Positions 57,402 through 62,138 of a stretch of DNA of 64,000 nucleotides are shown here, in pieces. Every line of letters starts with the position of its first letter. The stretch's first letter is position 1. The notes under the pieces were generated by a model. The model did no database searches and was not told the DNA's origin. It saw only the letters and a program-made list of their open reading frames with translations. Origin of the DNA: Trueperaceae bacterium (GTDB lineage Bacteria > Deinococcota > Deinococci > Deinococcales > Trueperaceae). The stretch lies in the NCBI GenBank assembly GCA_034521815.1, contig JAXHLW010000013.1, positions 1,600,001 to 1,664,000 on the forward strand, read 5' to 3'. Made by a program: the position numbers and the translations under genes.

Positions 57402-59480
57402 ATGGAGTTTCTCGTCATTCTCGTCCCGATCGCCGCGATCGTCGCGCTGTTCGCTGCTTGGCAGCAGGCCAACGGCGTTCTGTCCGCCCCCACCGGCGAC
57501 GCCCGCATGAACGAGATCGCGGACGCCATTCGGCAGGGCGCCAGCGCCTATATGAACCGTCAGTACCGCACGATCTTCGTCGTCGCGCTGATCATCGCCG
57601 CCCTGTTCGCGCTGGTGGCGTACTTTCAGACCGCCCCGCACCAGGCGACGACCTGGTGGTGGACCACGGTCGGCTTCGTCGTGGGTGCGGTCTTCAGCGC
57701 CCTCAGCGGCTACGCCGGCATGAACTTCGCGGTGCGCGCCAACGTCCGGGTCGCTCAAGCCGCGCGTGAGGGGATCCCCGGCGCCCTCAAGATCGCTTTC
57801 GGCGGCGGCGCCGTGTCCGGCCTGGCCGTGGCGGGCCTCGCCCTGCTGGGCGTGTCCGGCTTCTTCGTGCTCTTCGACCTGGTGCTGGGCTTGGCGAACC
57901 CGATCGAGCCGCTGGTGGGCTTCGCGTTCGGCGCCTCGCTGATCAGCCTGTTCGCGCGGGTCGGCGGCGGCATCTACACGAAGGCGGCCGACGTGGGAGC
58001 GGACCTGGTCGGCAAGCTCGAGGCCGGCATCCCCGAGGACGACCCCCGCAACCCGGCCGTGATCGCCGACAACGTCGGCGACAACGTCGGCGACTGCGCC
58101 GGCATGGGCGCGGACCTGTTCGAGACGTACGCCGTGACCGCCATCGGCGCGGTCTTCCTCGGCTACCTCCTGCCGGGAGGGATCGTCTCGGCCCTGGTGA
58201 CGTACCCGCTGGTGCTGGGCGCGATCGCGATCCTGGCGTCCGTCGTCGGGGTGCGTTTCGTCAAGCTGGGCAGCGACGGAAACATCATGGGCGCGCTGAA
58301 CCGCGGCGTGTACACCAGCGCCGCCATCTCGGCGGTCGGCTTCCTGATCGCCTCCGCGCTGATGCTGCAGAATGCGAACGAGCTCCTGGGCACGGGATCG
58401 TGGTTCTCGCTGTTCCTGGCGTCGATGGTCGGCATCGTCGTGACGCTGCTGCTGATGTTCATCACCGAGTACTACACCTCGACCGAGTACGCGCCGGTCC
58501 GGCGCATCGCCAAGGCGTCCGAGACGGGCGCCGCCACGAACATCATCAGCGGCCTGGCGGTCGGCATGCAGTCCACGGCCGCTCCGGTCCTGGTGCTGGC
58601 GTTGGCGACCTTCGGGTCGTTCCTGCTGGGCGGGCTCTACGGGATCGCGGTCGCTGCGGTCGCGATGCTGTCGGTGACCGGGATGGTCGTCGCGATGGAC
58701 ACCTACGGGCCGATCACCGACAACGCCGGCGGGATCGCCGAGATGAGCGAGCTCCCGCACGAGGTCCGCGTCAACACCGACGCCCTGGACGCGGTCGGCA
58801 ACACCACCAAGGCGGTGACGAAGGGGTACGCCGTCGGTTCCGCGGCGCTGGCCGCGCTGGTGCTGTTCGCGGACTACGCCGAGCGGCTGGACCTGGGCGA
58901 GGCGGCGTTCCGGCTGAACGACCCCCTGGTCGTCGTCGGCCTGCTGTTCGGCGCGATGCTGCCGTTCCTGTTCAGCGCGTTCCTGATGGAGTCGGTCGGC
59001 AAGGCCGCCGGCGCGGTGATCGAGGAGGTGCGCCGGCAGTTCCGCGACGTGCCCGGCATCATGGACGGCACCGGCAAGCCCGAGTACGGCAAGGCGGTGG
59101 ACATCGTCACGACCGCCGCCCTGAAGGAGATGGCGGTTCCGGGCCTGATGGCGGTCGTCGCGCCCCTGATCGTCGGCTTCCTGTTCGGCCCGATCGCGCT
59201 CGGAGGACTGCTGATCGGCGTCACCGTCTCGGGTCTGATGATGGCGCTGATGATGTCGAACGGCGGCGGCGCTTGGGACAACGCCAAGAAGTACGTCGAG
59301 GACGGCCACCACGGCGGGCCCGGCTCCGAGGCGCACGCCGCGAGCGTGGTGGGCGACACCGTCGGTGATCCGTACAAGGACACGGCGGGCCCGTCGATCA
59401 ACCCGCTGATCAAGGTGATCAACACCGTGGCGCTCATCTTCGCGGGCCTGATCGCCAGCGTGGGCGGCATCCTGCTCTGA
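57402..59480 (+). CDS. hppA: Membrane-bound pyrophosphatase, K+-independent H+-pumping type
   Basis: [43 protein letters not shown] (Lys form), [10 protein letters not shown]. Confidence 0.95.
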
Positions 59481-59494
59481 GGCGCGGGGCCCTC

Positions 59495-59546
59495 ACGACA
59501 GAGCGATGCGCGCGACCGGAGGTTCGGTCGCGCGCATCGCTGTCGT
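59495..59546 (+). terminator. Long GC hairpin after hppA
   Basis: 17-bp perfect stem 59502-59518 / 59525-59541. No U-tract. Confidence 0.55.
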
Positions 59547-59578
59547 CGTTCTCGTCATCGGCCGTTCTCGTCATCGCT

Positions 59579-59840
59579 GGCCTCGTCCGGCCCCAACTAT
59601 CCATTATACGACGTTTCGCGCCGATGTCATGAAGCGCATTTCGCGGCGCGCGCAGGTCGCTCGGTCGTAGCATCACAGGCGAAAGGGAAAGGAGGCACTT
59701 ATAGACGACGAGATGAACCGATCCTTCAACGGAGTCCCTCGATCCCACTAAAGGCTCACCCGCTCATCCCGAACGGCCCGAACAGGGCGACCGAAGACGG
59801 AGGCGACCGAGCGACAAGAGGAGAATCGAGGGACTTCCGT
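59579..59840 (+). ncRNA. Putative structured RNA unit, copy 1 (promoter, SD, short non-AUG ORF, multibranch fold)
   Basis: TAGCAT 59668-59673, GGAGG 59691-59695, closing stem 59729-59743 / 59825-59840. Core 59752-59812 is 59/61 identical to copy 2. Confidence 0.6.
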
Positions 59841-59879
59841 ATGCGCCCGGCGGGCATCCGTCCGAGGCGCGCGCTCGTT

Positions 59880-59930
59880 TTTGGGGACGCGTGCATCTTT
59901 GGGGCGCGTGCATCTTTGGGCGTGTGCATC
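59880..59930. repeat. Three degenerate 16-18 nt tandem repeats TTTGGG(G)(A)CGYGTGCATC between the two RNA units
   Basis: Read directly from the sequence. Confidence 0.8.
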
Positions 59931-59938
59931 GATGCCGG

Positions 59939-60196
59939 GGCCTTCGCCAGCCCCAATTTGTAATCATACGCCCATCCGGCCCAAAAGGCTGAATCACATC
60001 TCACCGCGCGCCCAGATCGGTGGGGCGTAGCATCACAGGTGAAGGGAGGTTCGCCAATCGAAGAACCGACGAACCAGTCCTTGAACGAAGTTCCTCGATC
60101 CTAGTAGAGGCTCACCCGCTCATCCTGAACGGCCCGAACCGGGCGACCGAAGACGGAGGCGACCGAGCAGGAACAGGAGATCGAGGGGCTTCGTTC
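59939..60196 (+). ncRNA. Putative structured RNA unit, copy 2
   Basis: TAGCAT 60028-60033, GGAGG 60045-60049, 18-bp closing stem 60083-60100 / 60179-60196, core 60108-60168. Confidence 0.6.
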
Positions 60197-60268
60197 GTAC
60201 CCTGATCCCAACGCACGTCGATCTGCACCTTCCACCCCCGCCGACGCGGGGGCGTCGTAGTCTGGCGT

Positions 60269-61123
60269 ATGCAGCTCCGTTCGCTGGCCGGCTGGACCGA
60301 ATCGTGGTTCGTCGAGGAGGTGCGCGACCTCGGCGACGCCGTCGCGTTGCGCTGCCCGACCGAGCCGACCTTTCGTTGGGGCAACGTGCTGATGATTCCG
60401 GACGCCCCCGAGCCCGGTGACCGCGCGTGCCTCGAGGCGCGCTTCGCCGAGGTGTTCGACGACCTGCCGGAGGTGCGGCACGTCACGGTCGGCTGGGACG
60501 ATCCGGAGGGGCGTGAAGGCGACGTCGCCGAGTGGCAAGCCGCGGGCTACGAGATCGACCGAAACGTGACGCGCGTCGCGGAGGCGGCCGATCTGCACGC
60601 CCCCGCGGGGCGCCCCGCCGGTTTCGCCGTCCGTGCCGCCCGCGACGACGACGACTGGCGTCAGGTCGTCGCGCTGCAGGCGTCCGACCCCGGCGACGAG
60701 GAGCCGACGTCCTACCGCGCGTTAATCCTTGGACGTGCCGCGTTTCGCAGACGCCTGGCGGAAGGAGTGCGACCCGATCTGCACGGGGCGTGGTTCCTCG
60801 CGACCCTCCACGGCGTGCCGGTGGGCAGCATGGGCCTGTTCGTCCACCAGCGCGTCGGTCGGTTCCAGTTCGTGCACGTGGCGCCGGAGCACCGCCGAAA
60901 AGGCGTCGCGACGGCCATGGTCCACGCCGTCGCGCGCGAAGGGCTAGGGCGCATGGGGGCGGAGCGCCTGGTGATCGTGGGGGACGAGGGAACGTCCGCC
61001 GACGGCATCTACGCCGCCCTGGGCTTCCGCGCCGTCGAGCGCCTCGTCGGCGCCTGCCGCAAGGAGCCGGTCGGCGCGGAGCGGCAAAGCGTGGCGCCGG
61101 GGATCACGTCCAAGACAGGATGA
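60269..61123 (+). CDS. GNAT family N-acetyltransferase
   Basis: [19 protein letters not shown] acetyl-CoA motif, IYAALGF. Leaderless TAGTCT-N5-ATG. Confidence 0.85.
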
Positions 61124-62138
61124 CCTTGCCAGCCTCTCCGGAGCGCATCGCATCGAACCCCGCCTGGAAGTCGTCCACGTCGAACCGGTGGGTGATCACC
61201 GGATCCAGGTCCAGGCCGGCCTGCAGAAGGTTGCCCATCTTGTACCAGGTCTCGAACATCTCGCGACCGTAGATCCCGCGCACGTGGAGCCCCTTGAAGA
61301 TCAGCTGATTCATGTCGATCGGCACGCGCCGGGACGGGATGCCCAGCAGCGCGATCCGTCCCCCGTGGTTCACCGTGTCCAGGATCTGCACGTACGCGCC
61401 CGGGGCGCCCGACATCTCGAGCACCACGTCGAACCCCTCGGTCATGCCCAGCCCGGCCATCACCTGGCGCAGGTCGGCGTCGTCTCGCGACACGTCCACG
61501 ACCCGGTCGGCCGCGCCCATCGCCTCCGCCAGACGCAGGCGGTGCGGGTTCACGTCGGTGATGACCACGTAGCGCGCGCCGACGAAACGAGCGACGGCCG
61601 AGGCCATCACGCCGATCGGACCCGCGCCCGTGATCAGCACGTCCTCGCCCACCAGATCGAACGCCAGTGCGGTATGGACCGCGTTCCCGAACGGATCGAG
61701 GATCGCCGCCCACTCGTCGGGAATCCCGTCCGGCACCTTGTACGCGTTGCCCGCCGGCAGCACGAAGCGCTCCGCGAACGCGCCGGGGCGGTTCACGCCG
61801 ACCCCCAGCGTGTTGCGGCACAGGTGCCTGCGCCCGGCCCTGCAGTTGCGGCAATGGCCGCACGTCAGGTGCCCCTCGCCGCTGACGCGGTCGCCGACGG
61901 CGTAGCCTTCGACCTCCGACCCGACGGCCTGCACGACCCCGACGTACTCGTGCCCGGTGATCATCGGGACCGGCACGGTCCGCGCCGCCCAGTCGTCCCA
62001 GGAATAGATGTGCACGTCCGTGCCGCAGATCGACGTGTGCGTGATCCCGATCAGCAGGTCGTTGGGGCCCGGCGTCGGCTCGGGCGCGTCGATCATCGAG
62101 ATGCCCGGTCCCGGCTCGAGCTTCGCGAGCGCCTTCAC
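61104..62138 (-). CDS. tdh: L-threonine 3-dehydrogenase
   Basis: [19 protein letters not shown].......C Zn site, [14 protein letters not shown]. Confidence 0.96.

Follow-up and report, generated by a model that had tools for sequence, protein, structure and literature searches.

A conserved small RNA family of the Trueperaceae with a candidate non-AUG mini-ORF in its main stem

Two paralogous RNA units in the gap between hppA and a GNAT gene

We analysed a 64,000-nt stretch of DNA from a Trueperaceae bacterium (contig JAXHLW010000013.1, positions 1,600,001 to 1,664,000; hereafter the window, numbered from its first nucleotide). The 788-nt gap between hppA and a GNAT acetyltransferase gene contains two paralogous units of ~160 nt, which are members of an RNA family that is, on well-supported comparative grounds, new, real and specific to Trueperaceae, phylum Deinococcota. 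Each unit is a well-supported candidate for a stand-alone small RNA (sRNA) gene of ~135-200 nt with its own predicted TANNNT promoter and its own predicted terminator. The reading that we prefer, with a probability of roughly 50%, is that of a terminator-ended sRNA whose fold would be gated by translation of a mini open reading frame (mini-ORF). Trueperaceae are widespread, radiation-tolerant, salt-tolerant and mostly uncultured bacteria. An initial annotation of the window had described the locus as a tandem pair of independently promoted, structured RNAs of a candidate new family; our analysis adds to it the single copy linked to hppA as the norm, a candidate mini-ORF with a Shine-Dalgarno (SD) sequence and an AUA or AUC triplet, and a corrected fold.

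The elements of both units are as follows; spacing is counted from GGAGG to the start-like triplet and distance from this triplet to the position of a conserved UAG.

59668-59673, + strand: -10 box TAGCAT of unit 1 (from the sequence; TANNNT is conserved at that distance)
59685-59845, + strand: unit 1 RNA, a full-length family member (covariance model R1, 154.9 bits, E 2.8e-33, model positions 1-162)
59691-59695, + strand: SD core GGAGG of unit 1, within the 5' hairpin P0 (from the sequence; P0 pairing is supported in the family alignment A4)
59701-59751, + strand: putative mini-ORF of unit 1, AUA start-like triplet, 16 codons, UAA at 59749-59751 (spacing 5, distance 48)
59733-59835, + strand: long stem P1 of unit 1, arms 59733-59743 and 59825-59835, enclosing the core 59751-59812 (inverted repeat; double changes in P1)
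59843-59882, + strand: hairpin and U-run (UUUUU at 59878-59882), likely terminator of unit 1 (minimum-free-energy fold and sequence; not called by a terminator pattern scan)
60028-60033, + strand: -10 box TAGCAT of unit 2 (from the sequence; conserved TANNNT)
60039-60200, + strand: unit 2 RNA, a full-length family member (R1, 181.7 bits, E 1.4e-39; covariance model R2, 121.1 bits)
60045-60049, + strand: SD core GGAGG of unit 2 (from the sequence)
60057-60107, + strand: putative mini-ORF of unit 2, 15 codons opened by a start-like AUC and closed by UAG at 60102-60104, with another UAG in frame at 60105-60107 (spacing 7, distance 48)
60083-60196, + strand: long stem P1 of unit 2, arms 60083-60100 and 60179-60196, enclosing the core 60108-60168 (inverted repeat and fold)
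60235-60252, + strand: hairpin C5GC-loop-GCG5 followed by CGUCGU, likely terminator of unit 2, conserved in same-genus homologues (fold and comparison)

Alignment of 59579-59860 with 59939-60220 by MAFFT gave a mean column identity of 86% over 288 columns, with diverged flanks and a near-identical core, and a repeat search returned a direct repeat of 124 nt (59701-59824 and 60057-60180, 84% identity, spacing 356). The inverted repeats enclosing the cores are 100% complementary in unit 1 and 89% complementary, with G-U pairs, in unit 2. The paralogous units with their near-identical core and the long enclosing stem were thus correctly recognised in the initial annotation, and the starts near 59680 and 60040 and the length of ~160 nt that it expected agree with the boundaries of the covariance model.

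A new RNA family in Trueperaceae

Searching 58500-61500 with Rfam 15 cmscan at E <= 10 returned five weak matches, none within 59579-60260; the one nearest to the units lies on the hppA terminator hairpin. The same search at E <= 5 on 20 diverse homologous loci returned six weak matches, none of them on the RNA. The units were therefore not assigned to any Rfam family, including 6S, SRP, tmRNA, RNase P, Y RNA/YrlA, riboswitches and raiA, which bears out the earlier view that this is none of the common known RNAs. A literature search on regulatory RNA in Trueperaceae or Truepera, with subscription-only papers and supplements outside its scope, found nothing relevant.

By blastn, the unit was detected in 9/10 other genomes of the same genus and had no real match elsewhere, the single match in another genus (G035) covering the terminator part only. 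Since blastn found only same-genus copies, a covariance model was needed to reach other genera. Model R1, built from 11 same-genus sequences, matched 96 of the 128 genomes of the family, representing 28/36 genera, and 60/79 of those that are at least 90% complete. Almost always there was one full-length match per genome; two were found in the window's genome (G000) and in G007, G027 and G029. Model R2, built from 62 members, matched 11/12 sampled family genomes. With strict filters it matched 0/82, 0/48 and 0/8 genomes of three sister families in a phylum sample (138 genomes in total). A two-motif pattern scan over one genome per species, with a sensitivity of ~45% (28/62 known members), yielded 46 loci, of which R2 confirmed 45; the loci were labelled Trueperaceae, 'Deinococcaceae bacterium', Deinococcota or uncultured bacterium. 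The pattern match not confirmed by R2 (L114), in a metagenome-assembled genome labelled Olivibacter, was taken as chance.

This distribution, together with the lack of an Rfam match and the strong covariation described below, upholds the proposal of a new structured non-coding RNA family, and the homologue search that the initial annotation had called for is thereby provided. The RNA resembles the raiA motif/ModT (PMC11706538) in being lineage-wide, strongly covarying, stand-alone and found comparatively before its function was known; it differs in that Rfam searches gave no match to that motif, in its much narrower distribution (one family) and in its smaller size. Even if the mini-ORF is not translated, the RNA remains a strong candidate for an Rfam entry, for structural study and for a search for its partners.

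Comparative support for the fold

Folding of the single sequences was only modestly better than that of shuffled sequences (z -1.97 and -2.09 for the two units), so that the structural argument rests on comparative data. Within the genus, RNAalifold returned 43 pairs; compensatory changes occurred in 10 of these, most of which belong to the long outer stem. In alignment A4, comprising 62 members, 87.6% of the cells were paired compared to 71.6% in shuffles, and 39/43 pairs, including all 15 pairs of P1, showed double changes across the family. None of 500 shuffles attained the observed values on any measure, and pairing dropped to 40-50% when the 3' partner was slid by 1-3 columns. RNAalifold applied to A4 without the stored structure returned P1 and an invariant four-pair helix, P2, with 11/15 pairs compensated. 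Covariation across 28 genera and the shuffle result sustain the earlier argument that selection acts on the fold, as opposed to a recent duplication. The G-U pairs assign the RNA to the + strand.

From 5' to 3', the consensus begins with hairpin P0, whose 5' strand reads GAAGGAGGU or AAAGGAGGU; this SD sequence of 9-10 nt is paired to a CU-rich strand, with AUA, AUC or AUU in the loop. It continues with the 5' strand of P1, a conserved UAG-containing junction, P2, purine-rich internal loops and a variable hairpin of ~10-100 nt, and ends with the return strands and a U-rich tail. P1 thus surrounds a highly conserved rod, which consists of a short invariant helix, the purine-rich internal loops and the variable hairpin, and the core downstream of the stop codon has helix columns that are invariant in 62/62 members. 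The interior of the fold had been drawn as a multibranch junction, and this part of the initial annotation stands only partly: the core of most other genera forms one rod that carries a single variable hairpin and has no multibranch junction. The ccg-aaga-cgg helix placed inside it has to be dropped, as its CGG becomes AGG or GGG in same-genus homologues and the consensus pairs those Gs elsewhere.

Predicted promoter, terminator and transcript

A TANNNT box lies 5-6 nt upstream of the first model position in 31/31 units inspected, from several genera. At the 3' side of P1, a U-rich tail (at least 5 T per 7-nt window) is present in 34/89 members, including all low-GC members; a separate hairpin is the alternative form of the predicted terminator. 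At the level of sequence, these elements point to a promoter and a terminator independent of the neighbouring genes, in line with the stand-alone transcripts with -10 boxes of their own that had been proposed.

Twenty public runs with part of the stretch were found in one search, six of them recorded as RNA, and contigs of four metatranscriptome runs were compared with the window. In one run, short contigs reached a depth of 161 on 60045-60208 (unit 2) compared to 4.9 on the GNAT gene; no contig of this run lay over the end of hppA, and uncovered parts were not counted as evidence. Since contig depth cannot rank genes, ends or strand, and RNA libraries may contain DNA, we take this depth as a weak hint of abundance.

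In several genera (L044-L064, e.g. L046, L049 and L055), conserved blocks AGCGCA, ATAGGAC and CACCATAC-like are located ~30-70 nt upstream of the RNA start, 5' of the -10 box. These may be a regulator binding site; no consistent pairing was seen when the blocks (-70 to -30) were considered as part of the RNA.

A non-AUG mini-ORF signature shared with infC

Every member starts with the near-perfect SD sequence of the P0 5' strand, which is complementary to the 3' end of 16S rRNA. This strand is invariant while its pairing partner varies, one pair for example being GC in 33 and GU in 25 members. In each of 88 distinct full-length members, on which the mini-ORF counts are based, a start-like triplet follows 5-10 nt 3' of GGAGG: ATA in 50, ATC in 35, ATT in 3 and ATG in none. 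The frame opened by this triplet (AUH) meets an in-frame stop in 86/88 members, after 12-21 codons. A putative small ORF, with an SD sequence, a start-like triplet and an open frame, is thus kept across homologues.

The distance between AUH and the conserved UAG was 44 nt in 11 members, 45 in 32, 46 in one, 47 in 8, 48 in 31, 49 in 3 and 51 in 2. By remainder modulo 3, these distances fall into classes of 65, 19 and 4 members, compared to a much smoother 47, 26 and 15 for the distance between the SD sequence and UAG; tallied roughly by genus, the frame classes comprise about 21, 9 and 3. The conserved UAG closes the ORF in the main frame. Second-frame ORFs end either on the UAA within a conserved AGUAAC motif or on a UAG that comes earlier, and three of the four third-frame members have acquired a stop of their own. 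Stops more than 14 nt before the core were found in none of 62 members in the AUH frame, compared to 47/62 and 15/62 in the other frames, a contrast that is partly built in because AUAGA contains UAG in the +1 frame. Replacement of the conserved UAG by another stop codon (UAA or UGA) was seen in three in-frame members versus 0/23 out-of-frame members.

A leaderless ORF beginning with the GUG at the RNA start in the window's genus was considered and rejected: other genera start with GGCG, UCGG or GCGA, and the frame is broken by 2-nt deletions before AUC in G002, G006 and G005.

The infC gene of the window's genome (L163, contig C13, ~727.7 kb) has GGAGGUG, a 6-nt spacer and AUA. Among five other family genomes (further infC loci L165-L168), infC appears to start with AUA (two), AUU (one) or AUC (one) at a spacing of 5-6 nt after GGAGGUG; the stretch covered in the fifth (G075) ended before the start. 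Three of these family genomes have no nearby in-frame AUG at infC. To our knowledge, infC is the one gene class and mechanism so far known for sensing initiation factor 3 (IF3) through initiation fidelity. PMC5499595 describes infC as using AUU or AUC, a start that is the target of autoregulation by IF3, which discriminates against such non-canonical starts.

The SD sequence and AUH triplet match infC of Trueperaceae, and the 5' hairpin of the sRNA therefore carries an initiation signature of the infC class: a strong SD sequence followed at start distance by AUA, AUC or AUU, never AUG. Unlike infC, the sRNA frame spans only 12-21 codons within a structured sRNA and does not encode IF3, and its SD sequence is longer (9-10 nt) and sequestered in a hairpin; IF3 dependence is a prediction from this analogy.

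Proposed gating of the fold by translation

In the mechanism that we propose, the AUH triplet would start the mini-ORF, which covers the 3' strand of P0 followed by the 5' strand of P1, and the ribosome would stop at the foot of the conserved rod. Entry would require capture of the masked SD sequence by the 30S subunit and acceptance of AUH, which would be favoured when IF3 is limiting. Because IF3 discriminates against AUH starts, as in infC, ribosome entry should rise under IF3 limitation. As the ORF runs through their strands, translation would melt P0 and P1, and the RNA would lose the stem on which its stability and termination depend. It would thereby alternate between two states, one folded, stable and competent to bind a partner, the other unfolded; the conserved rod with its invariant loops would be the likely partner site. 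If the mini-ORF is translated at all, any function would probably lie in the act of translation.

More tentatively, the RNA could sense translation status and work as a trans-acting riboregulator with initiation fidelity as its read-out; we consider this extension rather doubtful. The masked SD sequence and the infC-type AUH would admit ribosomes only under weak IF3 proofreading, and a ribosome running to the UAG at the rod foot would melt the long stem and switch off or release a rod-bound partner. UAG is the stop codon read by RF1 alone. Should translation of the mini-ORF prove IF3-dependent, the logic of infC autoregulation would extend to a separate RNA gene.

The dual-function sRNAs with tiny ORFs, Spot 42/SpfP, SgrS/SgrT and rnTrpL/peTrpL, are comparable in being short independent transcripts (here predicted) that have a promoter and a terminator of their own and combine a conserved RNA part with an ORF of ~15 codons. 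They differ in that we found no sequence or Rfam relationship, in the non-AUG start of the Trueperaceae sRNA and in the overlap of its ORF with the main stem. What sets this RNA apart is that its candidate mini-ORF, with a non-AUG start, forms part of the main stem of a conserved fold.

Several observations weigh against a translation-gated, stand-alone sRNA. The SD sequence is base-paired within P0, which would hinder initiation, and the peptides are poorly conserved, with a C-terminus that differs between the two frames used. Two of 88 members have no in-frame stop, four of 88 use the frame that lacks a conserved stop, and the frame counts overstate the number of independent events, since the members are phylogenetically related. 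The pair counts in A4 are likewise inflated, this alignment having been fitted to the model structure. One complete genome from a genus that otherwise bears the RNA had no match at E <= 1. The TAGCAT sites were not called by a sigma-70 consensus scan, which requires a -35 match, and an RNA-library contig of depth 90 spans 59988-60074, crossing the predicted start of unit 2, the zero-mismatch contig over this interval having a depth of 9.5. Finally, translation of the mini-ORF and both ends of the RNA are predicted from the sequence, and a binding partner is postulated.

Some of these points are what would be expected of a structured sRNA without any coding function, acting for example by binding or sequestering a protein or by pairing with other RNAs, with GGAGG and the AUMGA loop serving as structural or recognition elements and the open frame being a by-product. 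Conservation of the RNA is highest in the rod 3' of the stop codon and in the purine strand at its 5' end, and not in the peptide; the SD sequence is paired, and two of the three frames meet conserved stops anyway (UAG and the UAA of AGUAAC). Moreover, CU-rich RNAs or the 16S rRNA 3' end could be pairing partners of the purine-rich 5' strand. What this explanation leaves unaccounted for are the AUA, AUC or AUU triplet in the loop at start spacing in 88/88 members, lengths that are 3-periodic when counted from AUH and not when counted from the SD sequence, and the freedom from early stops of the AUH frame only. We regard it as a possible explanation that deserves to be taken seriously, with the odds against it.

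Gene neighbourhood and the case for a leader of the GNAT gene

The genes flanking the units, and the hairpin between hppA and unit 1, are as follows.

57402-59480, + strand: hppA, membrane H+-pyrophosphatase (H+-PPase), upstream neighbour (Pfam PF03030, E 2e-271)
59495-59546, + strand: GC-rich hairpin 3' of the hppA stop codon, likely the hppA terminator, separating hppA from unit 1 (inverted repeats, one of 17 nt 100% complementary)
60269-61123, + strand: GNAT acetyltransferase gene, downstream neighbour (Pfam PF00583, E 1.4e-10; no NCBIfam model matched the protein at cut-off)

The most widely conserved neighbour is hppA, which was found upstream on the same strand within 700 nt at 53/106 loci examined, a set that overlaps partly in species; no hppA was seen at 31 loci for which 600 nt or more of upstream sequence was available. 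The normal state of the family is a single copy, usually just downstream of hppA. Two genera have a second H+-PPase paralogue (46-57% identity to that of the window) beside the RNA, in divergent or convergent orientation (L081, L082, L088, L089, L091, L125, L130, L131, L141 and L148). As the paralogue adjoins the RNA in altered orientation, the link between the RNA and PPase genes survives rearrangement. Inspection by eye of 14 hppA 5' regions for pairing with the sRNA revealed only a generic GGAGG.

The genes 3' of the RNA vary by genus: one genus has a ferredoxin-like gene that is separately promoted, another a convergent gene, and a third only a hairpin and U-run. A coherent set of downstream genes, as would mark a riboswitch or cis-regulatory leader, was therefore not found. 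The GNAT gene lies 3' of the RNA on the same strand in all eight same-genus loci that include downstream sequence, even where hppA was not found upstream, and weaker GNAT homologues (33-41% identity) are located 3' of the RNA in loci of four other genera. With the window's GNAT as query, no homologue was found in 4/5 RNA-bearing genomes of other genera. Except in a few genera, the GNAT gene is outside the conserved context of the RNA family.

The constant position of the GNAT gene within the genus could mean that the RNA is a cis-acting leader or attenuator of this gene, in which translation of the leader ORF decides on read-through of the P1 terminator. Such a layout, in which an SD sequence precedes a short ORF that includes the 5' strand of a terminator stem, resembles the trp and pyrBI leaders, which are leader-peptide transcription attenuators. 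Unlike these, the Trueperaceae RNA has no conserved downstream operon, no regulatory codon run in any of the 88 predicted peptides and a large conserved rod inside the terminator stem. The ORF ends ~90 nt before the 3' strand of P1, a poor timing for coupling; unit 1 precedes another unit and not a gene; and the GNAT start in the window has a TANNNT box of its own. Taken with the variable downstream genes, this makes a GNAT leader unlikely.

The TANNNT box of the GNAT gene, TAGTCT (60258-60263), is located 5 nt before the ATG, and no SD sequence accompanies it, which suggests a leaderless GNAT mRNA with its own promoter. In G003 (L023/L038), two GNAT paralogues stand in tandem 3' of the RNA.

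Predicted peptides

The same frame statistics that led us to translation-gated folding would also fit a tiny protein gene, whose product is the peptide of 12-21 residues and whose structured 3' part acts as terminator or stabiliser. In the main frame, acidic residues recur at peptide positions 2-3 and a His at the end. Against this, conservation of the RNA core 3' of the stop greatly exceeds that of the peptide, 19/88 members use another frame with a different C-terminus, and a simple terminator needs no conserved internal loops. We consider a tiny protein gene improbable.

Origin of the tandem pair

The two adjacent copies stem from a duplication shared by part of the genus. G007 carries the same pair, its units 1 and 2 each being orthologous to those of the window, copy for copy. 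In G004 (L026 and L034), the RNA is split over two contig ends exactly inside the conserved core, as expected if the tandem repeated core broke the assembly, and the two halves resemble unit 1 and unit 2, respectively. The unit-specific orthologues in G007 and the unit-like halves in G004 date the duplication before the splits from these genomes. Both copies keep promoter, SD sequence, AUH triplet, in-frame stop, P1 and core, which argues that selection maintains both.

Within the window's own assembly (2.63 Mb, 13 contigs, 83.5% complete), only this locus matched the units; the other matches were no longer than 25 nt (E >= 0.117), so that the units are not a dispersed repeat. A recent duplication or functionless mobile repeat, which two adjacent copies separated by short tandem repeats might suggest, is very improbable given one or two copies per genome, no dispersed copies of the kind formed by miniature inverted-repeat transposable elements or repetitive extragenic palindromes, compensatory changes across 28 genera, and a pair with diverged flanks and near-identical core that is older than the G007 split.

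Other features of the intergenic region

The spacer between the units (59881-59930) is filled by a 16-17 nt motif, TTGGGGNCGNGTGCATC-like, that is repeated three times head to tail, and a related 16-mer sits in the hppA terminator hairpin (59523-59538). Just 3' of that hairpin, at 59547-59576, a perfect direct repeat of 14 nt, CGTTCTCGTCATCG, occurs twice with a spacing of 16. On the minus strand, 59630-59603 matches a sigma-70-like promoter (ATGACA, 16 nt, TATAAT; 11/12 positions, with a mean of 0.1 such sites in shuffles) that faces the 3' end of hppA and could drive a short antisense transcript.

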